From Candidatus Parcubacteria bacterium (GTDB lineage: Bacteria; Patescibacteriota; Minisyncoccia; Phycocordibacterales; UBA2100), in the NCBI GenBank assembly GCA_003599295.1, contig QZJK01000011.1, positions 13,372 through 77,371 on the forward strand: a stretch of DNA of 64,000 nucleotides, in the 5' to 3' direction. The translations under genes and the position numbers were made by a program. The notes below the pieces were generated by a model. That model saw nothing but the letters and a program-made list of their open reading frames with translations. It had not been told where the DNA came from and did no database searches. The first letter of the stretch is position 1, and every line of letters begins with the position of its first letter. Shown here piece by piece: positions 20,745 to 35,305 of this stretch.

Positions 20745-22175
20745 TTAGTACCGAAGTTCAACTGACCGCTGCAGTGTGCGCGGATTCGTCGAGATAGTGG
20801 CGCAATTCGTACTGAATCCATCCGCGCGAACGGTCGTCCGAACGGCTTGGCTCGCGCCGCTTCGAGTCTTCTCGACAGAGACGTCGACGCAGTACCCGTT
20901 CGGTTCGAACTGGAACGTCTGCGGATTGCCGTAGCTTGTAAACGGGGAGATATTCAAAGCTTCACCGTCGCATGTGGCTGACACTGGTCCTGTGCCCCCA
21001 CTACCTCCACCACCGTCCGCTCCAGCGGGCGTATATGTAATAACGATTATTCCTCCAGCTCCCGCACCTGCGCTCGATGCATCACCTCCTTTGCCGCCTC
21101 CACCTGCTCCATATGACCCACCGGCTCCGCCGCGGCCCTCGTCGCCGCCTCCTGCGCCGCCACCACCTGCACCTTGCGCGCCCCATTCAATACCACTGCC
21201 ACCATTTCCTCCGGTGCCCGGATTTCCGAATCCGCCGCCACCGCCGCCACCGCCGTTGGTACCGCTTTGGCCGGGATCTCCAGAAGAACCTCCCGCGCCA
21301 CCACCTGAACCGGATGAGTTATTTCCTCCTCTGCCACCTGTTTTTCCTGAAGCATTTGCTCCTGCCGTTCCGCCGCCACTGCCACCGCCGCCACCACCCG
21401 CTTCATTTCCTGTACCAGCGCTCCCATTGCCACCGTTCCTTCCGGCGCCATTCGGCCCGGCAGCGCCACCGCCTCCGCCACCGCCGGATACATCGCCGCT
21501 GCCTGAACTTCCCCCACTCCCACCCGCAAATTTCGTCGTGCCAACGCCAGATGTCGGCCCTCCTGCTCCACCAACGTTTCCGTTCCCCGCGCTTCCCCCA
21601 TTCGCACACACTGTTGAATCGGCACAACTTGTGCCATTGAAATACGTATCGCCGCCGCTTCCTCCTTGCCCGCCGCCAGAACCGACGGAATAACCAATGG
21701 AACTCCCGGGCGTGAGATTGACATTCGTTACTTTAGAATACGCGCCGCCACCGCCACCGCCCGTTGGAGAATTGCCGCCGCCGCTATCACCGCCTCCTCC
21801 GCCACCGATGACCTCTATCGAATTGTTGGAATCATTCCAATCGGCGGGGACTGTCCACGAACTGCCCGACGTGCGTACGATGGTGATCTCCGCTCCTCCG
21901 CCACCGCCGCCACCGCCTGCTGCTGCCGGTCCGAATGCTTGATGTCGAAAATCCCAATAGAGAGCGCATTCGGCACCGGTATCTGCCGCATAGAATGCAA
22001 ATTGCGAATCGCGTCCTATTGAAGAGAGCGTGAGCTCCTTTTGCGCGACACCGAAAATCGAGGCGCCCAGCGCAAGCACGATTGACGCAACGAGGGCCGC
22101 CAAAAGAAGCGTAAAGCCGCGCTCTCCGCTTCGCTTCTCTGTCATCTTGTTTATGTATTGAAACATACTCGTCAT
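20745..22175 (-). CDS. Giant glycine-rich type IV pilin-like protein. It has the prepilin N-terminal cleavage/methylation motif.
   Basis: Leader plus G|FTLLLAALVASIVLALG. About 60% of the residues are Gly or Ser (poly-G tracts GGGGGGGG). The C-terminal motif is GIIVITYTP. The start overlaps the upstream stop (ATGA). Confidence 0.7.
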   Translation of the reverse strand: MTSMFQYINKMTEKRSGERGFTLLLAALVASIVLALGASIFGVAQKELTLSSIGRDSQFAFYAADTGAECALYWDFRHQAFGPAAAGGGGGGGGAEITIVRTSGSSWTVPADWNDSNNSIEVIGGGGGGDSGGGNSPTGGGGGGAYSKVTNVNLTPGSSIGYSVGSGGGQGGSGGDTYFNGTSCADSTVCANGGSAGNGNVGGAGGPTSGVGTTKFAGGSGGSSGSGDVSGGGGGGGAAGPNGAGRNGGNGSAGTGNEAGGGGGGSGGGTAGANASGKTGGRGGNNSSGSGGGAGGSSGDPGQSGTNGGGGGGGGFGNPGTGGNGGSGIEWGAQGAGGGGAGGGDEGRGGAGGSYGAGGGGKGGDASSAGAGAGGIIVITYTPAGADGGGGSGGTGPVSATCDGEALNISPFTSYGNPQTFQFEPNGYCVDVSVEKTRSGASQAVRTTVRADGFSTNCATISTNPRTLQRSVELRY

Positions 22176-23338
22176 TCCCAGGTTATTTCTACACGGCCAG
22201 GTGCACCCGCGCCTCCAGGACCGCCCCCTGTGCCTCCGAGGCCTCCGCCTCCGACAACGACCGTCATTTGAGAACCGGCGCTTAGGCTTCCGGCAGAGTA
22301 CGTTCTGCTCACGTATCCTCCGCTTCCACCGCCTCCGCCGTGGATCGTTCCTGAACCTTCGTCGCCGCCACCGCCGCCGGCACCGGGTGCGCTCCCAGTC
22401 GAGCCGGCTGTATTGTTGCCCCCCACGCCACCAGCGCCTCCGTCTCCGGGTGCACTTCCGCCTGCGCCGCCAGCGGCTGACGTCGTGTTTATGCCGGAAT
22501 TTCCGGGAGTGTTAACCGTCCCGCCTGTAGCAGTCCCGCCAGCACCTCCTTGGCCGCCGCCGGAGTATCCGCCTCTGCCGCCTTGACCACCGCCCGCTGT
22601 CCGCGTAGCGCCAGCGACTGTTATCGATGTGGCGCCACCAGGGTCTCCATCTCCCGCGGAGCCGCTTGCTTCCGAGCCACCGCCCGCGCCGCCGCCCCAA
22701 AGCTTCACGACGAGGCTCGTCGCATACTCGGGCACCAAGAACGTGTATTGGCCGGGAACGGAGAACGTAATCGCGTTTCCAGATGCTGTATCGTCGCCTC
22801 CACCACCGGACACGGAAGAGTCCGCTATCCAACGGTAGAGATTCTCCGATATCGTGAATGTGCGTGTCTGGAATGAACCGGAGCGCCAAGAAACGGTGAC
22901 CGACACCCGCACTTCATCGTCATTGCCCGACACGGGTTCCGCGCGCACCGTGCGCGTGAAGCGTGTAGCGACCCACGGCGACCCGTTCTCGTATCCATAG
23001 AGTTCCCCGTCCGTTTTAAGAGGCGGACACGTCACCGGACACTGCGTCATGCTGCCATTCCGGGTATCAACGGTGAATGGCTGGCCGGTGATGGAGGGAA
23101 TGCCGGTCAGAAGGTCCACTGAAGCACCCAGTGCATTCTGAAGAATATTCCCATCGCGCACATTGCGAACGGTTTCAACAGCTTCCTGCGCAAGATGGAA
23201 TGCCGTTATCTGGTCTCTCGCATAGTACGCGGCCGAAAGACTGCGCGCCGTAAGCGTCATCGGCGCGACGACTGCGACCGTAAGGAGCGAGACCGCCACC
23301 AATGTTTCTATGAGTGTGAAGCCTTTTTTCATGGTCAT
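22172..23338 (-). CDS. Giant glycine-rich type IV pilin-like protein.
   Basis: MTMKKG|FTLIETLVAVSLL prepilin motif. C-terminal region SLVVKLWGGGAGGG...GAPGRVEITWE. ATGA overlap with the upstream pilin gene. Confidence 0.7.
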   Translation of the reverse strand: MTMKKGFTLIETLVAVSLLTVAVVAPMTLTARSLSAAYYARDQITAFHLAQEAVETVRNVRDGNILQNALGASVDLLTGIPSITGQPFTVDTRNGSMTQCPVTCPPLKTDGELYGYENGSPWVATRFTRTVRAEPVSGNDDEVRVSVTVSWRSGSFQTRTFTISENLYRWIADSSVSGGGGDDTASGNAITFSVPGQYTFLVPEYATSLVVKLWGGGAGGGSEASGSAGDGDPGGATSITVAGATRTAGGGQGGRGGYSGGGQGGAGGTATGGTVNTPGNSGINTTSAAGGAGGSAPGDGGAGGVGGNNTAGSTGSAPGAGGGGGDEGSGTIHGGGGGSGGYVSRTYSAGSLSAGSQMTVVVGGGGLGGTGGGPGGAGAPGRVEITWE

Positions 23339-23901
23339 AGGTCAAGGGCGCGCTGGACGGCGGTCGCTTGGATGTGGAACGTGGTGCGCGTTTTTACCTT
23401 GTCCGCGCCCGCGGTCCCTTTGATGGAAATGACCACTTTCGGCTGGCTCGTGTCGCCCGGCGTCGTGCCGATGACGTAGAATTTCATGCTGTCGATAGTG
23501 ACGGACGGTGAAGTAATGGCGATCGAATTTTGACCGGAATTCTCCGATTTATAAATGCGTTTGGTCGACGCATCGTAGAGGTATACCCATTGGTCGCCTG
23601 CATCACCTCTGTCTCCCCCGAATGCCTCGAATGCGAGCACGGTGTCGCCGTTCCCGCAATCGCGCGCCAGAGAATACTCTCCTCCACCGCAATGGTAGAC
23701 GCTCCCCATGCGAAGTGCGCGCACCATGCTGTCGAGTGCAATATTCAAATTGTTCATGACGGAATGAAGCGCCTGAGTTTTCCGATTCGCATCAACGAGC
23801 GAAAGAAGGGCCGTGACGGAAACGAGCATGACGACAGCGAAGAGCGCCGTCGAAACTATCATTTCAATGAGCGTAAATCCTTTATCTCCTTTCATGCTCA
23901 T
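23335..23901 (-). CDS. Type IV pilin/pseudopilin-like protein.
   Basis: MSMKGDKG|FTLIEMIVSTALFAVV prepilin motif. Confidence 0.75.
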   Translation of the reverse strand: MSMKGDKGFTLIEMIVSTALFAVVMLVSVTALLSLVDANRKTQALHSVMNNLNIALDSMVRALRMGSVYHCGGGEYSLARDCGNGDTVLAFEAFGGDRGDAGDQWVYLYDASTKRIYKSENSGQNSIAITSPSVTIDSMKFYVIGTTPGDTSQPKVVISIKGTAGADKVKTRTTFHIQATAVQRALDL

Positions 23902-23904
23902 ACA

Positions 23905-24558
23905 TTATTGAACGGATATCTGTCCCGTGGACTCGACAATGACGCTTGCCTGGTCGCCCCGCGGCGATTCGAGGAGGACGCGTCCGCGTTCGTAGAGGGC
24001 TGCCGGATTCGCGACACCAGAGATGCCGTTCGCGCTGATGAAGGCATCTGGCTCCGGCCGTCGGAACATCAGGTCAAGCCTATTTAATCCGCATGTTTCC
24101 GTGGTGCTTCCCGGCGCAGTTACGCAAATATCGGCGGTATGAAATCCTCTCTGCATCGTTATCGACTCGACGAGTTCGTTCTGATTCGATTGGTATATGC
24201 CGTCTCCCGTCGCGGAAGGAAATGTGTCCGCGAACAAGACGTACACCGTGGGAGAATTGATGCTGAAATGCATGCCATATCCTGCGCTGAACTCGCTCTC
24301 GCCAAAACGGCGCACTGCTATCCCGTACACTTGCGCCTTCCGTACGGACAACGCGACATCATAGGCAAGGTTCTCAAGTAAAATCGCGCCTCCGAATCGG
24401 GCGTTATTCGCGAGCATGATACCGGTAATGAGGACAAGTATCCCGGTGACCACGATAAGCTCCGCCAAGGTGAAGCCCCGTTCTTTCCGCCGGCTTGGTT
24501 TCGTTCCATGCGAAAAACCATTAGCGGTCTCTGGATTCGCGGAATGTACTCGGCTCAT
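23905..24558 (-). CDS. Type IV pilin/pseudopilin-like protein.
   Basis: RKERG|FTLAELIVVTGILVLITGI prepilin motif. ATG 24558 overlaps the pilD stop (ATGA coupling); the ORF track start at 24606 would give an implausibly long leader. Confidence 0.7.
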   Translation of the reverse strand: MSRVHSANPETANGFSHGTKPSRRKERGFTLAELIVVTGILVLITGIMLANNARFGGAILLENLAYDVALSVRKAQVYGIAVRRFGESEFSAGYGMHFSINSPTVYVLFADTFPSATGDGIYQSNQNELVESITMQRGFHTADICVTAPGSTTETCGLNRLDLMFRRPEPDAFISANGISGVANPAALYERGRVLLESPRGDQASVIVESTGQISVQ

Positions 24559-25364
24559 AGGGGCAGGGGAAGCGCGTATAGGTGCGCGAACCACACGATT
24601 AGGCAACTCGCGACGAGAAATGGCCCGAACGGCACCTCGCTTTTCATTGTAAATCGCATTCGCCCATCACGGAATGCGGGTATGGGAATAAGTGTCCGCA
24701 CGAATCCCTGCACTGCATCGCTAGACATCGCAAGAAGCGGCAAGGAGACGGCTGCGCCCAGAATGAATGCGAAGAGGACCGCTATGAGGCCGCCCTCAAT
24801 GCCGAGGAGCCATCCTATCGAGAGCGCCAGCTTCGAATCGCCGAGGCCCATCCATTTCCCGTCCGATACGAGCCACAGAAGAAAAAGTGGGAGCGCAGTC
24901 AAAGGCCCCGCGAGTACCGCAAAAGCGTATGAAGCGCCTGTGCCGACGACCCCAAAGAGAGCCGCGGAGAGCGTAAGTATGCCGCACATAAGCACCCATC
25001 GGTCGGGAATGATGGTCGTGCGGAGGTCATGCACGGCGATAGCGAGGAGAAGTGCCGCGATGGGGAGTGCCACGAGTTTGAACGGTAGCTCTATGGGAGC
25101 GGCACCGATGAGCGCGAACAATACCGCAGTAGAGAGTTCAACAAGCGGATACTGGAGGGAAATACGCGCTTTGCAATCTCGACAGCGGCCGCCGAGGAGC
25201 ACCCATGAAAGAACGGGTACGAGATCATGTGACCGAATGCGCGCCCTGCATGAGGGACAGACGCTTCGACCGGAGATAGTTTCTTTCCCTTCTCGCAGAA
25301 CGAGAACGTTCAAGAAACTCCCGACGATGAGGCCGAACGAACCGAATACAAGGACGAGTGTCAT
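24555..25364 (-). CDS. pilD: Prepilin peptidase (A24 family).
   Basis: N-terminal Cys-rich zinc motif CPSC...CRDC. Multiple TM helices and a conserved Asp-containing region (LGDSKLALSIG). Confidence 0.85.
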   Translation of the reverse strand: MTLVLVFGSFGLIVGSFLNVLVLREGKETISGRSVCPSCRARIRSHDLVPVLSWVLLGGRCRDCKARISLQYPLVELSTAVLFALIGAAPIELPFKLVALPIAALLLAIAVHDLRTTIIPDRWVLMCGILTLSAALFGVVGTGASYAFAVLAGPLTALPLFLLWLVSDGKWMGLGDSKLALSIGWLLGIEGGLIAVLFAFILGAAVSLPLLAMSSDAVQGFVRTLIPIPAFRDGRMRFTMKSEVPFGPFLVASCLIVWFAHLYALPLPL

Positions 25365-25382
25365 TAGGAAGGATTATCGCAC

Positions 25383-25407
25383 AAAACCCCGCACGAGGCG
25401 GGGTTTT
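25383..25407 (-). terminator. Rho-independent terminator after pilA: aaaaccccgc-acgag-gcggggtttt. It is bidirectionally symmetric.
   Basis: Stem plus U-run, read directly. Confidence 0.6.
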
Positions 25408-25431
25408 GATGCCGATTGTTTTGCTCTACGA

Positions 25432-25929
25432 TTATGGCTTCACGTCGTAGACAGGATCGGTGCCGGCAAAGTCAGCACCGCTTCCCGTACAGATACCGGT
25501 GCTTGCCGCGGCATCCGCGTCCGAATCAAGCGCCGCGTTGTTGGTGATCTCGAGCGTCGCTCCGAGGTGATACGAGGAGCAGGTCGTTCCGGAGCCGAGT
25601 GCCGCGTACGAGTAGGGGCTTCCTGTCGACGGATCCTCGGGGATAGCCGAGATGAACCCGCCCGTTACGAGAGGACTGCTTGCCGTCGTTCCGATGGTTG
25701 TGGGGTATCCCGTCGTCGGGTTCGAGTCGTAATACAGTTCAAGCGCAAGCTGGAGCTGCTTGACATCGGAGACGCGTCGCGCGTCGCGGCCCTTCTGGCG
25801 AGCGCTATTGAGGGACGCCAACACGATAGACGAGAGAATACCGATTATCGCGATCACGACGAGAAGTTCGATCAGGGTGAATCCTTTCGATCCCCGTATA
25901 CCGTAACCGCGCATTGAAATAAGTGGCAT
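25432..25929 (-). CDS. pilA: Type IV major pilin.
   Basis: Leader...GSKG|FTLIELLVVIAIIGILSSIVLASLNSAR is the classic type IVa pilin N-terminus. A start at M25914 is also possible. It is followed by a strong terminator, as expected for a highly expressed pilin. Confidence 0.85.
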   Translation of the reverse strand: MPLISMRGYGIRGSKGFTLIELLVVIAIIGILSSIVLASLNSARQKGRDARRVSDVKQLQLALELYYDSNPTTGYPTTIGTTASSPLVTGGFISAIPEDPSTGSPYSYAALGSGTTCSSYHLGATLEITNNAALDSDADAAASTGICTGSGADFAGTDPVYDVKP

Positions 25930-26060
25930 GAGTCTTATATGCTATTAGTTGATAATTAAGGTGTACCCGTATTGTACCCCCTCTCTTCTTCGAGGGGAGA
26001 CGACCTGTGGATAGTTCATTTTTCTTGAAAAAGCCCCAGATTTCAGGGATTTTTAATCCA

Positions 26061-27272
26061 TTAGAATCCAGAGGCGATATTATAAATAGGGATGAGGACC
26101 GAGGCGAGAAGGACGGCAACGCCGAGCGCAAGCGCGACTATCATGATGGGCTCGATGAGGGAGACCAGCGTGTCAACCGAGTGATTCACCTCACGGCGGT
26201 AGAATTTGCCCATGGTGTCGAGCACGTGGCTCGTATTACCCGTCTCCTCACCTATCTTCAACATTGCGACGACGATACCCGGAACCTCGGGGTGTTTCCG
26301 CAAGGCCTCGGAGACCGGAAGTCCCGATTTTACGTCAGTCGCAGCCGCCTTAAGTATTTTTTCATAGGTGACGTCACCGACGACATTCGCGGTTATCTCG
26401 AGGCTGTTCAGCATTTGGATGCCGCTTCGGAGCATGGTGGAAAGGTTGTCCGCGATGCGGGAAAGGTAGAGCTTTTTGTAAATGCCTCCGATGACAGGGA
26501 CTTGCATGCGCGCTCGCGAATACGTCTCCTTCCCCGCCGGTGTCGTCCCGAAGCGTACGAGAAAGATGCCGCTCCCGACCAAGAGGATGCTTAAGAGAAG
26601 AATGTGCGTAGAGAGGAACTCGCTGATGCCTATCACGATGCGCGTATATATCGGTATGTCCTGGCCCACTTCGTTCAAAATGTCCGCGAGATTCGGGATG
26701 ACGACCGTCAGCATGATGCCCATGACGACGACGAACGTAAGCATGATAAAAGCCGGGTAGATAAGAGCATTCCGCGCTTTCTGTGTTATTTCATAGTTCC
26801 TGTCGAGATAATCCGAGAGGAACGTAAAGGTCTCGTCCAGTTTTCCGGACTCTTCGCCGACGCGCACCATGTTGACATAGAATGGAGAGAACACGTCCGG
26901 ATGCCTCGAGAGTGCGTTCGATATCGTGCTGCCGTTCTGGATGTCATTCGCTATCTCGAGCAGTTTTGCCCCTAGTTTCGGCGTTCGCGCTTCGGCAGCA
27001 AGAAGACGGAACGCGCGAAGCGCGGATACTTGTGCTTCGAAAAGCGTCGTCATTTGCCGCGAAATAATGACGATGTCAGCGTTCGTGACGCGGTCGAACA
27101 AGCTGATGCGACTCAAAAGCGCCGAGGATTTCTCTTCGACCGGATTAATAGCCGATATCACCAGACTGCGCCGCTGGAGCGCCGCTATCGCCACGTCGAT
27201 ATTAATGGCATCAATGGTCCCCTGACGCTCGGCGCCTTCGGCATCGATGGCTGTATAGGAGAACAAACTCAT
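26061..27272 (-). CDS. pilC: Type IV pilus platform protein (GspF family).
   Basis: Two repeated GspF domains with three TM segments, 403 aa. Confidence 0.9.
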   Translation of the reverse strand: MSLFSYTAIDAEGAERQGTIDAINIDVAIAALQRRSLVISAINPVEEKSSALLSRISLFDRVTNADIVIISRQMTTLFEAQVSALRAFRLLAAEARTPKLGAKLLEIANDIQNGSTISNALSRHPDVFSPFYVNMVRVGEESGKLDETFTFLSDYLDRNYEITQKARNALIYPAFIMLTFVVVMGIMLTVVIPNLADILNEVGQDIPIYTRIVIGISEFLSTHILLLSILLVGSGIFLVRFGTTPAGKETYSRARMQVPVIGGIYKKLYLSRIADNLSTMLRSGIQMLNSLEITANVVGDVTYEKILKAAATDVKSGLPVSEALRKHPEVPGIVVAMLKIGEETGNTSHVLDTMGKFYRREVNHSVDTLVSLIEPIMIVALALGVAVLLASVLIPIYNIASGF

Positions 27273-27281
27273 AGCCAGTCC

Positions 27282-28346
27282 CTAGAGAAGCCGCTGAAGC
27301 ACATTTGGATTCAGCGAGTATTGGTACGCGCTCTCGACGGTAATCTCGCCGCGCGCGACCAATTCCGCGAGCGAGCGGTTCATGTCTATCATGCCCTCCC
27401 CGGAACCGGTCTCGATGACCGTGTTTATTTCGTGCGTCCGCTTCTCGCGGATGAGATTCGCGACCGCCTTGTTGTTGACGAGGAGCTCATATGTCGGAAT
27501 GAGGCCGCCGGAGACGCGCGGAATAAGGCGCTGACTGAAGATGCCGGCCATGGAAGCCGCGAGCTGGAGCCGTATCTGGTCCTGCTGCGATGCGGGGAAG
27601 GTGTCGATGATGCGGTCGATGGTCTGTGCGGCATTGTTCGTATGAAGCGTCGAGAAGACGAGGTGTCCGGTCTCCGCAGCTGTGACTGCGGCGGCCATCG
27701 TCTCCGGTCCACGCATCTCGCCAACGAGAATGACGTCTACGTCTTGGCGAAAAGCCGATTGGAGCGCAGTCGCGAAATCTTTCGTGTCAATGCGCACTTC
27801 GCGCTGGTCTATGAGCGACTGCTTCGGCTGATAGACGTATTCCACCGGGTCCTCGATGGTCACGATATGTTCCATTCTCTCGACATTGATGAGTTCTATG
27901 AGGGCGGCGAGGGTCGTGGTCTTTCCTTGCCCCACCGGCCCGACCACCAAGAAGAATCCTTGGGATTTGCGGGCGAAGCTGGTCAGGACGTCCGGCAAAT
28001 TCAATTCCTGTACCGTACGGATGGTTTTTGGTATCAGACGAAGCGCGATACCGACGCTTCCTCTCTGAAAGAACGCATTGCCTCGGAATCGGGCGTTTTC
28101 ATCGCTTTCATAGGCAAAGTCCACTTCCTGCTCGACAAGAAAATGCTCCATTTGCTTATCCGTGAGGAGAGCTTTCAAGAAACCCATCGTGTCATCGGGC
28201 GTCAGAGGCGGCTCCTTCAGCATGGGCGTGAGGGCGCCGGCGACGCGGATGGTCGGATGCGCGTCTGTTGAGAAGTGGAGGTCGCTTCCGCCCTCGTGCT
28301 CAAGGACGTTTATGTATTTTTTGAGCGTTGCCGCGTAGTCTGTCAT
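27282..28346 (-). CDS. pilT: Twitching-motility retraction ATPase.
   Basis: Walker A GPVGQGKTTT, Asp box, Walker B VILVGEMR, His box TLHTN. 354 aa, with no N-terminal extension; this is PilT/PilU-like rather than PilB. Confidence 0.9.
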   Translation of the reverse strand: MTDYAATLKKYINVLEHEGGSDLHFSTDAHPTIRVAGALTPMLKEPPLTPDDTMGFLKALLTDKQMEHFLVEQEVDFAYESDENARFRGNAFFQRGSVGIALRLIPKTIRTVQELNLPDVLTSFARKSQGFFLVVGPVGQGKTTTLAALIELINVERMEHIVTIEDPVEYVYQPKQSLIDQREVRIDTKDFATALQSAFRQDVDVILVGEMRGPETMAAAVTAAETGHLVFSTLHTNNAAQTIDRIIDTFPASQQDQIRLQLAASMAGIFSQRLIPRVSGGLIPTYELLVNNKAVANLIREKRTHEINTVIETGSGEGMIDMNRSLAELVARGEITVESAYQYSLNPNVLQRLL

Positions 28347-28463
28347 GATATGTTCAATGAACGCCCGAGTGAAGCGTACACCTGTGATTTTAACACCTTT
28401 CTTTTCAATGCCGGCTTGAAACTGTGAGTATCCGGCAAGAGTCGGCGGTCGTCCGAAGGCGCG

Positions 28464-28892
28464 TTACTTTTTCTTCCCGTGCTTCTTTACCTCTTCCTTC
28501 ACCGCTTCCACGACCTCCGAAGGTATCATGCTGGCTTTCACCACATAGCGATCGACGCCTAAGCCCTCTGCTTTTGCTTTCTCGGCGTCATTCCCCTGAT
28601 TCGTGAGCGCGATCTTTACCGCGTCTGGAGCGAGGTGTTCCGCGTCAAGCGTCTGGAGGAACGAGAACCCGTCATGCTCCGGCATCACGATGTCGAACAC
28701 GATAGCTTCCGCCGCAAACCCGTCGCGCAAGAATCGAAGGGCGTCCGCTACCGATAGACACGCCTGTACATTGAAGCCTGCGCCGGCGAATTTCATGCTG
28801 TACATATCCACGAGGAATTTGTCGTCGTCGATCAGCAGTATGTTCCCCGACGCTCCTTTGCCTTTCTCGCCTTCCGTTTGGTCATTCATCAT
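28464..28892 (-). CDS. Stand-alone CheY-like response-regulator receiver domain, embedded between pilB and pilT.
   Basis: ILLIDDD..., phospho-acceptor context FDIVMPEHDG, and the conserved T/K positions (KIALTNQG). Confidence 0.8.
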   Translation of the reverse strand: MMNDQTEGEKGKGASGNILLIDDDKFLVDMYSMKFAGAGFNVQACLSVADALRFLRDGFAAEAIVFDIVMPEHDGFSFLQTLDAEHLAPDAVKIALTNQGNDAEKAKAEGLGVDRYVVKASMIPSEVVEAVKEEVKKHGKKK

Positions 28893-28981
28893 AGGTAATC
28901 TGCTTATTGATACAATTATTCTACTCTACTACATATCTGTGCGAGCCCCCGGGGACTGCCAGGGAAGATGTTTATACGTCC

Positions 28982-30736
28982 CTACGAAGCCGGTTTTTCT
29001 TTCTTTTCCGGCGCAGATTCGGCAACTACAGGCATTTCCTCTTCCTGAAACAGGAGTTTCGATGAAAGAGCGTTCAATTCGGAAAAAGGAATGGCTTTTG
29101 AGAACGCTTTCTGCATCGCATCTTCCTGCATCGTAAGCATGCCTTGCCCGCGAGCAGTCTCCCATAGCTTGGATTCAACTGGGTTCTCAAGGATGATGCG
29201 CTCGATCTCCGGAGACATTTCAAGCACTTCGAATACGGCCATGCGGCCGCGAAGCCCTGTGGGCGATGCCGAGGTGCGCATGGGTTCCCACGCACTCTTC
29301 GGTATCTTGAAGCGGTGCTCGGCGGGGAGCGTTGAAAGCTGCTCCTCGATATTCTTTCTATCGCTCGCGGATATCTCTATTTCCTGTGTGCTTCCTTCGA
29401 CAAGCGTGCGCACGAGGCGCTGTGCCATCGAAATGACGAGGACAGGCGGAATGAGATACGGCTCGACGCCCATGTCGATGAGGCGCGGAATGGTACCGAT
29501 TGCGTCGTTCGTGTGGATGGTCGAAAGTACGAGGTGGCCAGTCAGTGCCGCTTGTATCGCGAGCTTTGCGGTTTCGCCGTCACGGATCTCTCCCACCATG
29601 ATGACATCCGGGTCCTGGCGAAGCGTTGTTCGGAGTCCCGTTGCGAACGAGTACCCGATCTCGGGATGCACCTGCGATTGCGTGACGCCTTCGACGAAAT
29701 ACTCGACCGGGTCTTCAAGCGAGAGCACGTTCTTTTTTTCGCGGTCGACTTCCGAAAGCATCGAGTACAAGGTCGTCGATTTTCCCGAACCTGTAGGACC
29801 GGAAATGAGAACCAGCCCGTGCGGACGGTTGATCGCTTTCCGCACCAAATCGAGATTGCGCGGCGTCAACCCGATCTGATCGAGCGGGATGAATCCTTGG
29901 TCACGATCGAGAATACGAATAACGACTTTTTCCCCGTAGTACGAGGGAAAGGTCGAGACACGGAAGTCTATCTGCCGATTTTCGATGGACGCCGAGAAAC
30001 GGCCGTCCTGCGGTTTTCTTTGCTCATCGAGGCGGATGGAGGCGAGCACTTTTATACGCGCGACGAGCGAGCGGTGCGTCGCGAGCGGGAGGATAACACT
30101 CGTGTGAAGGTCGCCGTCCACGCGGTAGCGCACGCGCACTCCTGCGAATTGCGGCTCGATGTGGATGTCGGAAGCTTTTCCATCGATGGCGTACCGAAGT
30201 ATCGTCGACACTATCTTGATGGTCGGTGCATCTTCCTGTACGTTCCTCGTCCGCTGGCCGATCTCCGACGGACGCTCAATGGTTGGGTCATCGAGATCGA
30301 GCGGCGCCATTTCGGATTCGACAGGCCGCTCTTTCTGCTCGGTCGCGAGGTCGACGATGGCGCGGTCCACTTCCCCGCCGAGGCCGCGGTACATTCCGAG
30401 TATTCTTTCAAAATCCTCTTTTGATATTCGAAATACTTTAAACGGCATGCCTGTCGAGCGCGCGATAAAATTCAGCGCGTCGAAGCCCTGTATATCTTCA
30501 GGGTCAACCATGCCGATCTCGAGGACGCCGTCCCCGACCGCGAGCGGTGCGAGCTGATAATGCTTTGCGGATTCCTCGGGAATGTAGCGGAGGACATCGT
30601 ACGGCACCTTGGTTTCCCCTAGCTCTCTCATCGGCACTTCAAGGCCTCCACTCCCCTGGCCCGCTGCCTGCGAACTCGTAGAGAGATTTATTTGAGGACT
30701 TCCTGTTTGATTTGTTTGCGGCATACGAAGTATCAA
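28982..30736 (-). CDS. pilB: Type IV pilus assembly ATPase (GspE family).
   Basis: N1/N2 domains, Walker A GPTGSGKSTT, Asp box and His box TIHTN. The C-terminal tetra-Cys is not obvious. There is an unusual about 40-aa acidic/Lys-rich C-terminal tail. Confidence 0.9.
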   Translation of the reverse strand: MILRMPQTNQTGSPQINLSTSSQAAGQGSGGLEVPMRELGETKVPYDVLRYIPEESAKHYQLAPLAVGDGVLEIGMVDPEDIQGFDALNFIARSTGMPFKVFRISKEDFERILGMYRGLGGEVDRAIVDLATEQKERPVESEMAPLDLDDPTIERPSEIGQRTRNVQEDAPTIKIVSTILRYAIDGKASDIHIEPQFAGVRVRYRVDGDLHTSVILPLATHRSLVARIKVLASIRLDEQRKPQDGRFSASIENRQIDFRVSTFPSYYGEKVVIRILDRDQGFIPLDQIGLTPRNLDLVRKAINRPHGLVLISGPTGSGKSTTLYSMLSEVDREKKNVLSLEDPVEYFVEGVTQSQVHPEIGYSFATGLRTTLRQDPDVIMVGEIRDGETAKLAIQAALTGHLVLSTIHTNDAIGTIPRLIDMGVEPYLIPPVLVISMAQRLVRTLVEGSTQEIEISASDRKNIEEQLSTLPAEHRFKIPKSAWEPMRTSASPTGLRGRMAVFEVLEMSPEIERIILENPVESKLWETARGQGMLTMQEDAMQKAFSKAIPFSELNALSSKLLFQEEEMPVVAESAPEKKEKPAS

Positions 30737-30811
30737 TGGTCTACGCTACGCTCGAAAGGACGAAGGCCATTTTCCACGTCCTCCGAAGCACGGCGTTCTT
30801 CATTCACGGTC

Positions 30812-31141
30812 TCAAATCTCGCCCCCTTCTCCTGCGTCAAAACCCCGAGGGGCGAACGGGTTCCGCCGTCCGACTGGTTCCGGGACTATCTGTGTTCCAA
30901 AATCCCGGAGCGTGCCAAAGGTCGGATCGGAGAATATCGTTCCGGAAAGTGAGACTGCCCGCAGGGTCAAAAGCGTATTGACGATGCCTGCCTCGGCAGT
31001 CCCCACTTCGCCCACTACTTCTGTCGTGAGGAGGGCGTCATCGGGAGTGCTGTCTCCGGAGAACGCATACCACGCACCGCCGAGCGCGACCGCGCCGATG
31101 ATGACGATTGCGAGTGCGTTGCGCGAGAGGAATGACATCAT
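30812..31141 (-). CDS. Small TM-anchored protein at the PilP position in the pilMNO(P) gene order. This is an inference.
   Basis: N-terminal TM (ALAIVIIGAVALGGAWYAF). The start overlaps the pilO stop. Confidence 0.4.
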   Translation of the reverse strand: MMSFLSRNALAIVIIGAVALGGAWYAFSGDSTPDDALLTTEVVGEVGTAEAGIVNTLLTLRAVSLSGTIFSDPTFGTLRDFGTQIVPEPVGRRNPFAPRGFDAGEGGEI

Positions 31142-31143
31142 AC

Positions 31144-31713
31144 TTACTTCAACCAATACGTTCTAATAGTAATGTCGAAACTGTAGAGGGGCTCTCCTGT
31201 GTCGTCCGCATCCTCGGGCTGAAGCGAGAGGGAGACGAGATCGACGATGCGAAGGCTCGATTCGAGATTTTCCAAGAATTGCACGAAGACCGGATAGGTC
31301 GCGACGGTCGAAAACTGGAGCGTCAGTGAATCGAACTTTTGCCGCGCGGCACCGATGGCCCCCACGACGGAATTATCGCCGGTCTCGCTCGCGGGATTCG
31401 AGATGAGCACGTTCTGGAGCGCCATGCCATGAGCCCCGGCAAGATTATCAAGATCAAGAACAAGCCGCACGTTATCCACGTGGTCCGGAAGGAGTTTCTG
31501 GAGGCGCGCGAGGTCGGCCGGATTAAATGCGTTGTAGCGCGACAAAAGCGATTGCTTCAATTGCTGCAGCTCCGCGGCCCTATCGAGAGCCTCGTCGTAT
31601 TGTGCTATCTCCGCCTTTTTCGCTTGCACGGTCTGATACGTGGGCTGCGTGTACATGAAGAAGACCCCGAATGCGACCGCGAGACCAAGTGCCGAAAAAA
31701 TTAGTTTGAACAT
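31144..31713 (-). CDS. pilO: Type IV pilus assembly protein PilO-like.
   Basis: N-terminal TM followed by a coiled-coil (AEIAQYDEALDRAAELQQLKQ), then the core domain. Gene order is pilM-N-O. Confidence 0.7.
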   Translation of the reverse strand: MFKLIFSALGLAVAFGVFFMYTQPTYQTVQAKKAEIAQYDEALDRAAELQQLKQSLLSRYNAFNPADLARLQKLLPDHVDNVRLVLDLDNLAGAHGMALQNVLISNPASETGDNSVVGAIGAARQKFDSLTLQFSTVATYPVFVQFLENLESSLRIVDLVSLSLQPEDADDTGEPLYSFDITIRTYWLK

Positions 31714-31716
31714 AGA

Positions 31717-32427
31717 TTATTCCGTGGGCTGGCTTCCTTCCGAGGCGGTATTCTCCTCAGGGACTCCGTTGAACGGCGAGAGCGAGGATTGCACCTCCGA
31801 GGTCGGATTCGTGAGTTCCTGCGGAAGGCTCTGTGTCGCCCCGCGCACGATGGCGAGGTAATTGATGGCCGAAGGATTCAAAAGCGCCGAAAGGCTGAAG
31901 TGGACGCCGTCCGTTTGGCGATTGATGTTCGAAAAGATGGGACTCGTCACCATGCCGACCTTACTGAAAAGATCCGCCTGGAGCGCTATCGAGTTGACGC
32001 TATCGGCAATGCCGTCCATCTGTATCGTCATGTGCTGCGGATCCGAGCCATCGAAATCCAATGATATGAATGAAATGTTGCTTATCGTTGTCTGCTCAAG
32101 CATGCGGAAAAATGCGGAGGGCGCGATGTGCTTTCCCAAGACCTCGTTCGCGACCAACATGCGGTCATCGAGCCGCGTCAGCTCTTGGATGAGCGCGGGC
32201 TCGAATGCGGCGCTCGCGCGCCCGAGCTGTTCTATTTTCGAAGCAGCGCTTGCATGCAGATACTGATCATAGAGGAGCACTCCGACTCCGAGGACTCCGG
32301 ACACGACGAAAAGAACGACCGAGGCAAGCGCGGCGAGGTCCAAGAGACCGTTCTTCGCCGCTTTGCGGACGGAGCCGGCTTGTACCGTGTCTTTCGGGAT
32401 GAATGAGGGCGGTGTTGTTGTTTCCAT
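31717..32427 (-). CDS. pilN: Type IV pilus assembly protein PilN-like.
   Basis: Single N-terminal TM (LAALASVVLFVVSGVLGVGVLLY) and a periplasmic domain. Position is between pilM and pilO. Confidence 0.65.
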   Translation of the reverse strand: METTTPPSFIPKDTVQAGSVRKAAKNGLLDLAALASVVLFVVSGVLGVGVLLYDQYLHASAASKIEQLGRASAAFEPALIQELTRLDDRMLVANEVLGKHIAPSAFFRMLEQTTISNISFISLDFDGSDPQHMTIQMDGIADSVNSIALQADLFSKVGMVTSPIFSNINRQTDGVHFSLSALLNPSAINYLAIVRGATQSLPQELTNPTSEVQSSLSPFNGVPEENTASEGSQPTE

Positions 32428-32459
32428 AGTTCTTCTTCTGCCGCTCCCCGGTCGCGCGT

Positions 32460-33608
32460 TTACGATTCTTTGAGTTTCCGCAGAACAAGCCCGACCGCTA
32501 CCGCAAATCCTGGGCCTATCTCGCGAAGCACGTCTCCGAGGAACGCAGGCGCTTCCGTTCTTGCGAACGGGTTCGCTATTTCAACGTCCGCCTGCAGGGA
32601 GGTCTTTGCTTCTTCAAAAAGTCCTGGCAAAGACGCACCGCCGCCCGTGAAGACGACGCGCGATACATTCTTATTGTATCGCTGCCCGTAGCTCAATAGT
32701 ACCCGATTCACCTCGCTAAAAATACGCGTGAGTGTTGATAACAGCGCGGTCTTGATGCGTTCGTTCTCATCGGTAGAGTACGCTGTCGTGTCTTTAAGGC
32801 CGCGTTCACGCTTGACGCGCTCCGCCTTGTCGAATTCCCAGTTCAAGGAACGGCCGAGGACCTCCGTCATGTGCTGGCCGCCGACCGTGAGGAGATGTGT
32901 GAGGCGCACGACGCCGCGCTCGACGACATAGAGCTTGGTCGTCGCGGCCCCGAGATCAACCACCAAGACCGGCGCGATGCCGTGTCCGAGCGATGAACGG
33001 ACGACGCTGAATATCTCGATCTCATAGAATTCGACAGTGATACCCGCTTCCGCCGCAAGCGCTTGATAGTTCTCTATCGTAGCGTTATGAATGGCGACAA
33101 GGAGCACTTCTTGCCCGCGCGGTTTGCTTGACTCCTTTTCCATCCTGTCGAACGCGCTTTGCTCCCCCTCCTCCTCTGGTATCAAGAACCAGTCAAGAGC
33201 GACTTCGGTGATTGGCACCGGAATGTATTTCCGAGCCTCGATAGGAACGATGCGCTTTAAAGATTCCTTATCGACTTTCGGCAGCTCAACGACTGAGACT
33301 AAACTCGATGCGAACGGGATGGAAATACCGCCCTTTCGCGCCGTCACGTTCGCTTCTTTCATGAGGTCGGTCAACGCTTCGGCCGTTTTCTCCGACGAAA
33401 GCTTCACGGCTTTTCCGATGGGCTGCCCCCCGTAAGGACCGAGTGCTATTTCGCCATACGTCTCAAGCACCGCTGCGCCGCGCGACGCGCGAAGCTGCAC
33501 GACTTTTATGGAACTTGCGCCGATGTCGACGCCGAGAATGCTTCCCTCGGCGCCTTTGCCGAGAACTCCCGAGAGTGCTTTCCCAATACCCCCAAAAGAA
33601 AAAGCCAT
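32460..33608 (-). CDS. pilM: Type IV pilus assembly protein PilM (actin-like ATPase fold).
   Basis: ILGVDIGASSIKVVQL and VVDLGAATTKL are actin/FtsA-like phosphate motifs. Confidence 0.85.
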   Translation of the reverse strand: MAFSFGGIGKALSGVLGKGAEGSILGVDIGASSIKVVQLRASRGAAVLETYGEIALGPYGGQPIGKAVKLSSEKTAEALTDLMKEANVTARKGGISIPFASSLVSVVELPKVDKESLKRIVPIEARKYIPVPITEVALDWFLIPEEEGEQSAFDRMEKESSKPRGQEVLLVAIHNATIENYQALAAEAGITVEFYEIEIFSVVRSSLGHGIAPVLVVDLGAATTKLYVVERGVVRLTHLLTVGGQHMTEVLGRSLNWEFDKAERVKRERGLKDTTAYSTDENERIKTALLSTLTRIFSEVNRVLLSYGQRYNKNVSRVVFTGGGASLPGLFEEAKTSLQADVEIANPFARTEAPAFLGDVLREIGPGFAVAVGLVLRKLKES

Positions 33609-33994: not shown

Positions 33995-34642
33995 ATGAAT
34001 GTCCGCGCGTTCCTGAACACCATTCTCGATAGCGTCCTCCCGCGGCGCGAGCGGGATATGCGCACAAAACGGCGTTCACTCCAGGATATTCCGCTCGCTC
34101 CAACGACGCACGAACTGCTCGGCACGCGCATACTGACCATCATGGATTATCGGGAACGGGCGGTCGAAGAACTCTTGCAGAGTTTGAAATACGATGCGTC
34201 GGGACACGCCGCAACATTGTGTGCAGAGGCCCTTGAGGATTTCTTGCGGGAAGAGGTGTCTTCCGTTCGTGCATTCTCGACGAAGCGTATTCTCCTTGTG
34301 CCTGTGCCGCTTCATAAGGTGCGGGAGCGAGAGCGTGGATTCAATCAGATAGAAGTCATTCTTAAGCACCTGCCCAAAGAATTTCACGACGGCCGTGCCG
34401 CGGCTGTCGTTCCCGCGCTTTTACGCACCCGCCCGACGAAACAGCAAACGCATCTATCGCGCAATGAGCGCTTAAAGAACGTCGCGGGCGCATTCGAACT
34501 TTCCGACGCAAGCGTGCTTCACGATGCACACGTTGTTTTAATAGACGACGTCGTGACGACGGGTGCAACTCTGACCGAAGCGGCGAAGCCGCTCATGAAG
34601 CGCGGGATTTCTGTGAACCTGCTTGCACTCGCGCGGGCGTGA
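33995..34642 (+). CDS. comFC: ComF-family phosphoribosyltransferase-domain competence protein.
   Basis: LVPVPLHKVRERERGFNQ and the PRTase motif VVLIDDVVTTGATL. Confidence 0.8.
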   Translation: MNVRAFLNTILDSVLPRRERDMRTKRRSLQDIPLAPTTHELLGTRILTIMDYRERAVEELLQSLKYDASGHAATLCAEALEDFLREEVSSVRAFSTKRILLVPVPLHKVRERERGFNQIEVILKHLPKEFHDGRAAAVVPALLRTRPTKQQTHLSRNERLKNVAGAFELSDASVLHDAHVVLIDDVVTTGATLTEAAKPLMKRGISVNLLALARA

Positions 34643-34684: not shown

Positions 34685-34773
34685 GGAGAGGTGGCCGAGT
34701 GGTCGAAGGCGGCACGGTGCTAACGTGTTAGGCGGGTAAAACTGTCTCGAGGGTTCGAATCCCTCCCTCTCCG
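34685..34773 (+). tRNA. tRNA-Ser, anticodon GCT, with long variable arm.
   Basis: GGAGAGGTGGCCGAGTGGTCGAAGGCGGCACGGTGCTAACGTGTTAGGCGGGTAAAACTGTCTCGAGGGTTCGAATCCCTCCCTCTCCG. Confidence 0.8.
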
Positions 34774-34951
34774 CAGATTTGAACGCAGTGAGAATACTGC
34801 GGAGAGGAGCAAGCGCTTCGCGCTTGCGTGGAGGGATTCGAAAGTGAGCGCGGGGTGCCTGTTCAGTAGGACGGGTCGCGCGAGCAGGCCCGAGCGGAGC
34901 GAGGAGCGACGGCGACGAGCGAGCTCTTGGGAGCATCCCTCCCTCTCCGCA
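34774..34951 (+). repeat. tRNA-trailer repeat element D, downstream of tRNA-Ser(GCT). It ends in a 17-nt direct repeat of the tRNA 3' end (atccctccctctccgca).
   Basis: Direct repeat at 34759-34775 and 34935-34951. Inverted copies tgcggagaggag and cgtggagggattcgaa, the hairpin caagcgcttcgcgcttg, and the gagcggagcgaggagcgacg block shared with element C. Confidence 0.5.
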
Positions 34952-34972
34952 AAAATCTATATAATAGAAGGT

Positions 34973-35305
34973 ATGACAAGAAAAGCTGGGGTTGTTCTTT
35001 TTTATGCACTTCCCATCGTTCTGATGATAAGCCTCATCCCGCTGATTCAGAATGATTATGTCCTTGCGGGCGTATACGGTGCCTGCATCGTTGCCCTGCT
35101 TTTCATAAAACGCGAGAAAAATGATCTCATCGCGCTCGCATTCGGCATTATCGGTATCACTATCGCCGAGTCCTTTTTCATCAGCACAGGGGTGGAAACG
35201 TTCGCGCGGCAGAGCTTTCTCGGCATGATGCCGCTCTGGCTCCCCTTCCTGTGGGGCTATGCGTTCGTGACCATAAAGCGCACGCTCCGCGTATTAGACC
35301 ATTGA
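34973..35305 (+). CDS. Hypothetical three-TM membrane protein.
   Basis: RBS gaagg before ATG 34973. The longer ORF from 34844 would run through the repeat element. Confidence 0.45.
   Translation: MTRKAGVVLFYALPIVLMISLIPLIQNDYVLAGVYGACIVALLFIKREKNDLIALAFGIIGITIAESFFISTGVETFARQSFLGMMPLWLPFLWGYAFVTIKRTLRVLDH

Follow-up and report, generated by a model that had tools for sequence, protein, structure and literature searches.

The window analysed here, a 64,000-nucleotide stretch of DNA, contains at positions 20745-33608 a minus-strand operon of 12.9 kb with 14 genes. As read from sequence, it likely equips a Kaiserbacteria-like patescibacterium with a complete, retractile type IVa-like pilus machine that has no secretin, the identity of the machine on its own being highly likely. 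The operon is standard, and ordinary as a whole, except for two tip subunits whose domains are related to those at the receptor-binding ends of phage tail fibres. Its counterpart in Saccharibacteria is T4P-1, an essential locus that contains PilT. All 14 genes are found as open reading frames (ORFs), most of them with HMM matches, comprising pilM, pilN, pilO, a small membrane protein gene, pilB, a CheY-like receiver gene, pilT, pilC, pilA, pilD and four minor pilin genes, so that the single-strand type IV pilus locus of about 13 kb proposed originally is borne out, with all core pilus parts present and intact. The nearest relatives of PilT are found in metagenome-assembled genomes of Candidatus Kaiserbacteria/Paceibacteria, with identities of 67-89% to 80 Paceibacteria loci, and the block formed by the comF-like gene, the pil operon, ligA and gatCA recurs in about 55-68 of these 80 related loci, a recurrence of gene order which shows that the arrangement is not due to chance. 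The many overlapping start and stop codons that had been claimed reduce to three ATGA overlaps among the 13 gene junctions (pilD/mp1, mp2/mp3 and mp3/mp4), the remainder comprising four gaps of at most 9 nt and others of 32-131 nt, with none in the operon above 131 nt.

The alignment proteins comprise (i) PilM (32460..33608; this and all following operon features lie on the minus strand), a cytoplasmic actin-like protein with 141.9 bits against TIGR01175 (cut-off 133), 126 bits against PF11104 and no predicted transmembrane (TM) segment; (ii) PilN (31717..32427), a bitopic protein with a conserved N-terminal S-F-I-P motif and a single predicted TM segment at residues 34-52, whose own match to PF05137 is sub-threshold (E=0.028) yet spans positions 2-76 of 78, while 35 of 64 pilN orthologues match PilN, the best at 3.1e-6; and (iii) PilO (31144..31713), a bitopic protein with an N-terminal TM segment and 26.8 bits against PF04350 (cut-off 22). 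The gene orfP (30812..31141) encodes a small bitopic membrane protein whose family is unnamed, and occupies the slot held by PilP in diderm operons. The label 'PilP-like' originally given to it finds no support: the ORF is real and conserved, being found in 68 of the 80 related loci, but matches no PilP model or structure, nor any entry in Pfam, NCBIfam or the PDB. Its family displays the conserved motif ...LRxVxLxGxIFxDPxFxxLxDFGxxIVPEPVGRxNPFAP and comprises 3109 cluster representatives at E<=0.001, the best 150 of which are 84-203 aa long, mostly about 100-140 aa.

The extension ATPase PilB (28982..30724, with the start set at ATG, the ORF itself opening at TTG 30736) shows 374 bits against PF00437 and a PF05157 MshEN domain, and scores 442 bits with TIGR02538 and 458 bits with TIGR02533, both under the equivalog cut-offs. 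Between pilB and pilT, a stand-alone CheY-like receiver (28464..28892; PF00072, 47.9 bits) occurs in 67 of the 80 related loci, with a phospho-acceptor pocket that is complete in sequence (Asp22-24, Asp67 and Lys119 kept in 66-67 of 67 aligned sequences); no histidine kinase for it was seen in the window. The retraction ATPase PilT (27282..28346) reaches 430.8 bits with TIGR01420 (cut-off 319.1), and the platform protein PilC (26061..27272) comprises two PF00482 repeats (197.8 bits) and three predicted TM segments. Directly 3' of pilC, the consensus scan found a terminator-like hairpin with a T-run (26034..26048); terminator-like sites are not enriched here over shuffles, and the evidence for this site is therefore weak.

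The major pilin PilA (25432..25929; PF07963, 35.7 bits, and TIGR02532) has a 16-residue leader and the processing site G|FTLIE, with Gly-1 in 62 of 64 aligned sequences and both Phe+1 and Glu+5 in all 64. As to the terminator of its own that pilA was predicted to have, a strong hairpin, AAAACCCCGC-CTCGT-GCGGGGTTTT, does lie 3' of the gene at 25383..25407, reaching -24.6 kcal/mol in an 81-nt context (z = -3.4; equalled by none of 200 shuffles), but the consensus scan misses it because only four T (U) come after, and the site is probably a partial terminator. The prepilin peptidase PilD (24555..25364) matches PF06750 (98 bits) and PF01478 (42.7 bits) and has seven predicted TM segments.

PF07963 matches PilA and three of the minor pilins, and four of the five pilins retain the Gly-1/Phe+1/Glu+5 processing motif, the last one lacking Glu5. 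The putative H/I/J/K labels of the minor pilins come from sub-threshold matches, gene position and the Glu5 pattern. mp1 (23905..24558; PF07963, 22.9 bits) has a long leader and Glu+5 in 58 of 59 aligned sequences, and may be called GspH/FimU-like by position only; mp2 (23335..23901; PF07963, 32.9 bits) is weakly GspJ-like (TIGR01711, E=1.5e-4, sub-threshold); and mp3 (22172..23338) appears PilV/GspI-like from weak matches to TIGR02523 and TIGR01707. mp4 (20745..22175) has no HMM match and displays the prepilin motif G-F-T-L-L-L, with a hydrophobic residue at position +5 in all 56 aligned sequences (window and orthologues) and Glu5 in none; in lacking Glu5 it resembles GspK/PilX-type tip subunits.

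Both mp3 and mp4 are about twice the usual length (388 aa versus 158-230 aa in orthologues, and 476 aa versus 148-214 aa, respectively) due to modules with 30-35% glycine. In mp3, the module is C-terminal (about residues 185-388, nt 22175-22783) to a pilin part of about residues 1-171; in mp4, a glycine-rich module of about 300 aa (about residues 93-385, nt 21021-21899) sits between helix α1 and the C-terminal β-strands. Homologues, a family profile and predicted folds indicate that both are related to phage tail-fibre receptor-binding domains. The AlphaFold model of mp3 comprises two domains (pLDDT 90.8), with the Bxb1 tail-tip protein as best PDB fold match (E=1.2e-3), and that of mp4 predicts the module at pLDDT >95 and the pilin part at low confidence, with 119 viral fold matches and a Foldseek match of the module to the Pam3 tail fibre (7ypx_A, E=4e-6); the ALK glycine-rich domain is also among the PDB fold matches of the modules. 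The profile of the module family matches the same fibre, Pam3 gp24, at E=1.6e-9. The mp3 module reaches 19.3 bits with PF21722 (cut-off 24.3) and the mp4 module has no Pfam match, both window modules falling under the Pfam and PHROG thresholds; the module of one orthologous modular pilin matches PHROG tail families. The terminal strands ..SW.VP.DWN...IE.IGGGGGG.. (N) and ..G.IVITY (C) recur in 294 homologues, and the modular pilin architecture is also present in independent assemblies (P0121, P0123, L064, L012 and L081).

[quoted passage not shown] Next to the modular pilin genes, no gene for a fibre chaperone was identified. The Pam3 gp24 domain (Pfam PF21722) is itself related to S16 gp38 and the ALK glycine-rich domain. 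In Pam3, such tail-fibre domains work as trimers, and a monomeric, pilin-borne copy may behave differently.

Comparison with the related contig L081 discloses replacement of the modules. The DNA is 92% identical as far as the mp3 pilin domain reaches, at window position 22806, and the proteins are near-identical in mp2 (99.5%), the mp3 pilin domain (98.8%) and the mp4 N-terminus (96.9%), whereas the L081 mp3 module shows 50.7% identity to that of the window and is 96 aa longer, and the mp4 insert is another subtype. Given different modules on near-identical pilin scaffolds, it is plausible by analogy, if evenly poised, that the modules are exchangeable, strain-specific adhesins recognising the host-cell surface. 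Following type IV filament biology, PilD would cleave the five prepilins, the four minor pilins would prime assembly on PilC and end at the tip, and PilB and PilT would extend and retract, respectively, the PilA fibre through the single-membrane envelope, with PilM-N-O and the unnamed small membrane protein anchoring the machine in the membrane and the receiver probably biasing extension versus retraction. The tip modules on the PilV-like and PilX-like pilins would bind the host-cell surface, and PilT retraction would then draw the cell onto the host.

The locus might instead be primarily a competence pilus, passing extracellular DNA to ComEC/ComF/DprA for nucleotide scavenging or transformation, which we regard as unlikely. 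The competence-like neighbourhood of the original prediction shrinks to one conserved gene (33995..34642, plus strand), divergent upstream of pilM, for a comF-like protein with a phosphoribosyltransferase fold, which is present in 53 of the 80 loci and divergent from pilM in all 13 with the order listed. This ComF-family gene does adjoin the locus, but its product scores 93.9 bits with TIGR00201 (curated cut-off 233.55; PF00156, 27.3 bits) and lacks the N-terminal CxxC pairs (Cys4) of a zinc-finger motif, as do 49 of 51 orthologues. The other claimed neighbours fare worse: the LTD protein (PF00932) and the giant surface protein (1238 aa, secreted, no domain match) exist beside the locus but adjoin it in none of the 80 related loci, being strain-specific; the TraG/VirD4-like ATPase exists (58116-60956) but lies 24.5 kb away amid housekeeping genes; and no phage-type holin was found among the scanned window ORFs of at least 140 aa. 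Competence is also favoured by ligA directly downstream of the operon and recG near it in some loci. The Firmicutes Com (ComG) pilus is likewise a type IV filament made by cells with one membrane, with homologous ATPase, platform, prepilin peptidase and major and minor pilins, and a ComF-family gene adds to the likeness. ComG operons comprise ComGA-GG plus ComC. By contrast, the window locus contains PilT and PilM-N-O and stays under the equivalog cut-offs for ComGA (258 vs 300 bits) and ComGB (122 vs 240 bits); the window contains no comEC, comEA or dprA, and its tip modules are like receptor-binding domains and unlike known DNA-binding pilins. Across the CPR, com genes are reported to be conserved, and a Saccharibacterium is transformed by way of comEC (PMC10633639), but Saccharibacteria can do without comEC and not without the pilus (PMC10633639), and T4P-2 pilin mutants stay competent (PMC10633639, PMC11623550). 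This genetics, together with the receptor-binding-like modules, favours host attachment over dedicated DNA uptake, to which a contribution is possible given the conserved comF-like neighbour.

Somewhat less probable still, the modules might be folded and exposed and yet serve as phage or predator decoys, self-recognition or aggregation surfaces, or mechanical caps. The PF21722 family is without demonstrated function outside phage fibres, and most of the module homologues are not pilins but secreted or phage-like proteins; however, in phage fibres the solved relatives occupy the receptor-binding ends (PMC9608196), module replacement on near-identical scaffolds is what one would expect of a specificity determinant, and accessory-domain minor pilins of Saccharibacteria are needed for host binding (PMC11623550). 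It is very improbable that the glycine-rich regions are mere spacers, disordered or of low complexity, or that they arose as artefacts of assembly or reading frame: the glycine content and the sub-threshold Pfam and PHROG scores would suit it, but the modules are predicted to be compact, their profile matches a solved phage fibre, their terminal strands are conserved, the architecture recurs in independent assemblies, and the frames are intact and linked by ATGA overlaps. Least probable of all is a type II secretion system (T2SS) with a pseudopilus pushing proteins out, since the numerically best NCBIfam matches of PilB, PilC and PilA, to the homologous families GspE (458 vs 630), GspF (309.5 vs 424) and GspG (49.1 vs 88.85), all fall under the equivalog cut-offs, PilT and PilM pass theirs, the lineage has no outer membrane to cross according to the literature, and the HMM scan of all plausible window ORFs of at least 140 aa found no GspD, GspC or GspL. 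Nor did it find TadA/Flp-type components or a secretin, confirming that pilQ is missing from the locus and extending this to the window; by HMM scores, the pilus is type IVa-like and not T2SS, Tad or Com.

Compared with GspH-I-J-K and FimU-PilV-PilW-PilX, the operon shares four consecutive minor pilins 3' of the machine genes, in the order H?-J-I-K and with gspI, gspJ and pilV matches all below cut-off; PilY1 is absent. The last minor pilin shares with GspK the loss of Glu5 and an additional domain within the pilin fold (PMC8179133), which in GspK is an α-domain and not glycine-rich. Modular pilins are widespread (PMC8179133), and Streptococcus sanguinis, with a secretin-less monoderm T4aP that includes PilT, likewise presents on its filament a pilin module with a grafted functional module, as in PilB-vWA and PilC-lectin (PMC8179133, PMC9934059). 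The window differs in module type, in having one module inserted inside the pilin fold and not appended, in two tip pilins being modular at once, and in that a related contig has different modules on near-identical scaffolds.

The closest parallel, T4P-1 of Saccharibacteria (Nanosynbacter lyticus TM7x locus one; Southlakia epibionticum T4P1), is likewise secretin-less and patescibacterial, and shares PilB, PilT, PilC, PilM/N/O, PilD and five pilins; there, the pilus is essential and accessory-domain minor pilins are implicated in host binding (PMC11623550, PMC10633639). The window locus, known here from sequence, belongs to a different class (Paceibacteria/Kaiserbacteria), and its modules are glycine-rich and phage-fibre-like, not jelly-roll or β-propeller. 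Compared to TM7x locus one, it adds the conserved stand-alone receiver and the unnamed small membrane protein, neither of which is in the published description of that locus.

The type IV pilus operon comprises 14 consecutive open reading frames on the minus strand, running from 33608 down to 20745, as assigned with Pfam and NCBIfam models. The first four genes encode (i) PilM (TIGR01175, 141.9 bits; cut-off 133), (ii) PilN, a 236-aa bitopic protein identified as such because its sub-threshold match to PF05137 (E=0.028) spans the full model and the same family is matched by 35 of its 64 orthologues, at best with E=3.1e-6, (iii) PilO (PF04350, 26.8 bits; cut-off 22), and (iv) orfP, a small bitopic protein of 109 aa (30812-31141) that matches neither a Pfam nor an NCBIfam model. 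These are followed by PilB, which combines a T2SSE domain (PF00437, 374 bits) with an N-terminal GSPII_E_N/MshEN domain (PF05157, 43.5 bits) and scores 442 bits against TIGR02538, under the strict equivalog cut-off of 675; a stand-alone receiver of 142 aa (PF00072, 47.9 bits); the retraction ATPase PilT (TIGR01420, 430.8 bits; cut-off 319.1); and the platform protein PilC, with two T2SSF repeats (PF00482, 197.8 bits). The distal part encodes the 165-aa pilin PilA, with a G↓FTLIE motif (PF07963), the prepilin peptidase PilD, with A24_N and A24 domains (PF06750 and PF01478), and four pilin-like proteins, mp1 to mp4, of 217, 188, 388 and 476 aa, the first three matching PF07963. Simple hydropathy analysis predicts a soluble PilM, one N-terminal helix each in PilN, PilO and orfP, three helices in PilC and seven in PilD. 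The largest gap between the genes is 131 nt, so the operon hides no further gene, and a six-frame motif scan of the rest of the window disclosed no further Glu5-type prepilin motif.

Judged by its gene content, the machine is a type IVa-like pilus as found in single-membrane cells, since PilT and PilM pass their curated cut-offs whereas a secretin, GspC, GspL, a TadA-type ATPase and a Flp pilin are absent. The complete, single-strand type IV pilus locus of the original prediction is thereby borne out, as is its lack of pilQ: no plausible ORF of at least 140 aa in the 64-kb window, the locus included, matches a secretin, and no scanned ORF of the window matches PilP, both absences being expected for a single-membrane cell. 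A competence (ComG) pilus draws on scores of 258 bits against NF041000 and 122 bits against NF041012, the ComGA/ComGB models, whose cut-offs lie at 300 and 240 bits, and is at odds with the presence of PilT and PilM-N-O, ComG operons being confined to ComGA-GG. A type II secretion system would account for the GspE, GspF and GspG matches, all of which fall under their equivalog cut-offs; GspD, GspC and GspL were not found in the window, and PilT is present. As to a Tad/Flp pilus, PilB reaches 55.5 bits against a TIGR03819 cut-off of 373, and there is no match to a Flp pilin or other Tad-type component. The type II secretion, Tad and Com assignments are accordingly rejected, their matches lying below the curated cut-offs and components of these systems being missing.

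The extensive start/stop overlap previously described shrinks to three ATGA junctions (pilD/mp1, mp2/mp3 and mp3/mp4), the remaining junctions comprising four gaps of at most 9 nt and six gaps of 32-131 nt; the pilD/minor-pilin block, pilN-pilO-orfP and pilT-pilC are tightly coupled, but not the operon as a whole. The separate terminator ascribed to pilA finds partial support in a 10-bp G+C-rich hairpin at 25383-25407 (z = -3.4, with no shuffled sequence folding as well), although only four U residues follow it and a consensus scan missed it. A second terminator-like site lies downstream of pilC, at 26034-26048, and the two together would agree with read-through and with a major-pilin transcript in excess, as is usual.

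As to orfP, the label 'PilP-like' does not hold, there being no Pfam, PDB or annotation link to PilP: PF04351 matches none of 69 orthologues at E<=1, the orthologue profile retrieves nothing relevant from PDB sequences, no source annotation among 152 homologues supports the name, and the protein, with about 55 conserved residues, is too short for the PilP β-sandwich. It represents instead a family whose profile, searched against 1.84 billion representatives, gives 3109 matches at E<=0.001; the best 150 of these lack annotation and are 84-203 aa long, most of them about 100-140 aa. Near the C-terminus the family has an invariant G-R-x-x-P-F-x-P motif, and it matches nothing in Pfam, NCBIfam or PDB. 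In the receiver, Asp22-24, Asp67 and Lys119 are kept in 66-67 of 67 aligned sequences, and residue conservation thus shows an intact phospho-acceptor pocket, with the acidic residues, the phospho-acceptor Asp and the conserved Lys; no histidine kinase to pair with it was seen in the window. Two components of the CPR pilus machine are conserved but unstudied: the unnamed orfP family, which spans over 3000 sequence clusters, and the receiver encoded between pilB and pilT.

The distribution of the operon was followed through PilT, which has 581 confirmed relatives in a species-level genome collection; of these, 80 were kept for locus comparison with ±10 kb flanks, being 67-89% identical to the window PilT, with many of the loci on truncated contigs. 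An exact-sequence look-up of the window PilT returned no record, and the lineage was placed by similarity. Almost all of the 80 come from metagenome-assembled genomes with the label Candidatus Kaiserbacteria, Paceibacterota, Parcubacteria or Patescibacteria; they include one closed chromosome (CP066682.1), and many of them bear the generic label 'uncultured Candidatus Saccharibacteria' from automated MAG submissions. Searches of the 80 loci with the window proteins (tblastn) outline a syntenic block comprising a divergent comF-like gene, pilM through mp4, and then ligA and gatCA, within which orfP is present in 68 loci, the receiver in 67, pilM and pilN in 64 each, the minor pilins in 58-60 and the comF-like gene in 53. 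Locus one of Nanosynbacter lyticus TM7x comprises PilC, PilB, PilT, PilM/N/O, PilD and five pilins, a published inventory equal to that of the window operon (PMC11623550), and type IV pili and com genes are reported to be widely distributed in the CPR (PMC10633639); as a pilus locus the operon is therefore ordinary and belongs to an already-known type.

The competence-like neighbourhood is supported only in part. The adjacent gene described as comFC (33995-34642, plus strand) encodes a phosphoribosyltransferase fold (PF00156, 27.3 bits) but scores 93.9 bits against TIGR00201, with a cut-off of 233.55, and the N-terminal CxxC pairs are absent from the window copy and from 49 of 51 orthologues, so that a zinc-finger-dependent ComFC function would be missing in the clade. 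Given the conserved comF-like neighbour, DNA uptake is a possible role for the pilus; comEC, comEA and dprA were not found in the 64-kb window. Between tRNA-Ser (34685-34774) and recG lie the secreted LTD-domain protein (35765-36673) and the giant surface protein, a secreted protein of 1238 aa with no domain match (36739-40455). Both are present as predicted, yet the 80 related loci contain no counterpart of either; they are therefore strain-specific and stand outside the conserved neighbourhood, and 34685-41230 forms an island of strain-specific surface proteins next to a tRNA gene. The VirD4-like ATPase (58116-60956, minus strand; 946 aa, TraG-D_C 26.8 bits) also exists, but 24.5 kb away and alone between ndk and purD, and its best match, nearly full length, is phrog_5156 (E=9e-67), an uncharacterised phage protein family and not a conjugation coupling protein. 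The phage-type holin was not recovered, either among ORFs of at least 140 aa with Pfam or in one candidate membrane ORF with PHROGs.

What sets the locus apart is the architecture of its minor pilins. The core set GspH/I/J/K, or FimU/PilV/W/X, may have its counterpart in the four minor-pilin genes, which are in the expected place. [quoted passage not shown] Sub-threshold matches link mp3 to both pilV and gspI, and mp2 to gspJ. On these sequence features, mp1-mp4 are read here as the putative core tip-priming set.

Two members of this set are much enlarged: mp3 (22172-23338) measures 388 aa in the window against 158-230 aa in relatives, and mp4 (20745-22175) 476 aa against 148-214 aa. Alignment places the extra part of mp3 in a C-terminal extension of about 200 aa and that of mp4 in an insertion of about 300 aa between helix α1, with its conserved ECALYWD segment, and the C-terminal β-strands, each segment being 30-35% glycine. 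The AlphaFold model of mp3 (pLDDT 90.8) resolves into two domains predicted with confidence and a low-confidence linker between them; the mp4 insert is modelled with pLDDT >95, the pilin part of the same AlphaFold2 model being poor. [quoted passage not shown] Modular pilins are known and diverse, with 264 architectures, several of them from the CPR, and GspK carries an inserted domain (Raynaud et al., PMC8179133).

The mp4 insert has 294 homologues, with conserved terminal strands, and more than 20 of the best 120 carry precomputed matches to PF21722 (Gly_rich_2), a family that the mp4 module itself does not match. Structural comparison with Foldseek retrieves (i) the tail fibre of cyanophage Pam3 (7ypx_A, E=4e-6), (ii) a tail-tip protein of Bxb1 (9d93_Qa, E=1.4e-4), and (iii) the glycine-rich domain of ALK (7nx3, E=0.03), together with 119 predicted viral structures at E<=0.001 (BFVD); the listed viral matches are mostly 'glycine-rich domain-containing' proteins of tailed phages, and a few are labelled tail or baseplate proteins. 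The profile of the mp4-module family also reaches Pam3 gp24 (7ypx_A) by sequence, with E=1.6e-9, and in that protein the receptor is recognised by the distal tip of the fibre, which consists of a TNF-like plus glycine-rich unit (PMC9608196). For mp3 the link to phage-fibre domains is weaker, drawing on a PF21722 match of 19.3 bits, below the gathering score of 24.3, and on one fold match, to the same Bxb1 protein (9d93_Qb, E=1.2e-3). Neither mp3 nor mp4 of the window matches PHROGs; in P0168, an orthologous modular PilV-like pilin, the module matches PHROG tail families. The homologues, the confident models and the fold and profile matches argue that the extra segments are not junk. The two modules represent different subtypes, since hhalign aligned the mp3 module with the mp4 module over the last strand only and an HMM of the mp4-type module did not detect that of mp3.

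Only 5 of the top 120 mp4-module homologues have a pilin N-terminus, on mp2-like, mp3-like and mp4-like scaffolds. Across the window and 82 fetched loci, the mp4-type module is confined to mp4 of the window and of the related loci L064 and L012 and to mp3 of L081, and glycine-rich C-terminal modules are found in 6 of 43 PilV-like cluster representatives. Between the L081 contig and the window, the DNA is 92% identical from pilA to 22806, the end of the mp3 pilin domain, beyond which similarity breaks and then resumes at 77% near the mp3/mp4 junction. At the protein level, mp2, the mp3 pilin domain and the mp4 N-terminus are 99.5%, 98.8% and 96.9% identical, respectively, whereas identity between the mp3 modules drops to 50.7% and their lengths differ by 96 aa, and the L081 mp4 carries another module subtype at the same insertion point. 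Because the pilin parts are near-identical and the modules differ, the modules have been replaced on almost unchanged scaffolds.

Other loci add observations of their own. L012 encodes an mp4 of 635 aa with two glycine-rich modules (L012:11420-13327) and an mp3 with a different, non-glycine-rich C-terminal extension (L012:10472-11410), so that these two tip pilins vary in architecture still further. Four mp3 orthologues (P0125, P0152, P0165 and P0170) display a GIY-YIG (PF01541) stretch ahead of the prepilin motif, in P0125 a full N-terminal extension; a wrongly called start that fused an upstream gene to the pilin probably accounts for it.

Among attachment organelles of episymbiotic Patescibacteria, type IV pili have the strongest support, and PilG/PilH-type CheY proteins are known to tune extension against retraction elsewhere. 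By analogy with type IV filaments, PilD would process the five prepilins, the four minor pilins would prime fibre assembly on PilC and form the cap, PilB would extend the fibre and PilT retract it, PilM-N-O, probably with orfP, would anchor the machine in the single membrane, and the receiver may tune extension against retraction in the manner of PilG/PilH. The glycine-rich modules would act as exchangeable adhesins for the surface of a partner cell, a proposal suggested by their homology, by the replacement pattern and by the precedent of Saccharibacteria, where minor pilins with accessory domains are already documented: the accessory-domain minor pilin PilX2 is needed for host binding, and the pilus is essential and comEC dispensable (PMC11623550, PMC10633639). 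A bolder version, tentative and on balance doubtful, holds that the Kaiserbacteria-lineage tip is an exchangeable host-recognition device made of phage tail-fibre receptor-binding domains mounted on PilV-like and PilX-like pilins, swapped by recombination between close strains and setting the host attached; if true, it would parallel, in cells, the way in which phage tail fibres switch host range, possibly with modules exchanged with phages.

To our knowledge, the Paceibacteria/Kaiserbacteria, which are large groups, have no cultures, known hosts or host-range determinants. Were the modules adhesins, their subtypes could predict or fish for hosts, and the same recognition domain would serve phages and cellular parasites of bacteria. 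In the searchable literature, an incomplete set, the terms 'glycine-rich', 'pilin' and 'Patescibacteria' were not found together and PF21722 is unmentioned; within it, this glycine-rich module type on pilins, its occurrence on two tip subunits at once, and module replacement between contigs with near-identical scaffolds all appear unreported.

The remainder of the window contains further features of interest. The stretch 2500-7330 displays a lower GC content, 0.46-0.51 compared with about 0.55, and may be an integrated element: a LOOT RNA (RF03000, 70.9 bits) at 3785-3909 lies directly upstream of a 306-aa coiled-coil ORF, and a large serine recombinase (5583-7295) abuts tRNA-Glu (7255-7329) at the end of the stretch; a search for an att-like direct repeat around this possible 2-7.3 kb element found none. 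An FMN riboswitch at 12841-12959 (minus strand, 106.5 bits) lies upstream of a transporter of the EamA family (11868-12887), which probably imports riboflavin, since the organism is unlikely to synthesise it. The minus-strand tRNA-Ile at 45120-45193, detected by ARAGORN and by an Rfam tRNA match, has a UAU anticodon, which suggests AUA decoding without the TilS route, most bacteria reading AUA with a lysidine-modified CAU tRNA. A 563-aa protein (43408-45099, minus strand) comprises a cupredoxin/plastocyanin-like domain, a peptidoglycan-binding domain and PKD repeats, and is a surface redox protein unusual for a reduced genome.
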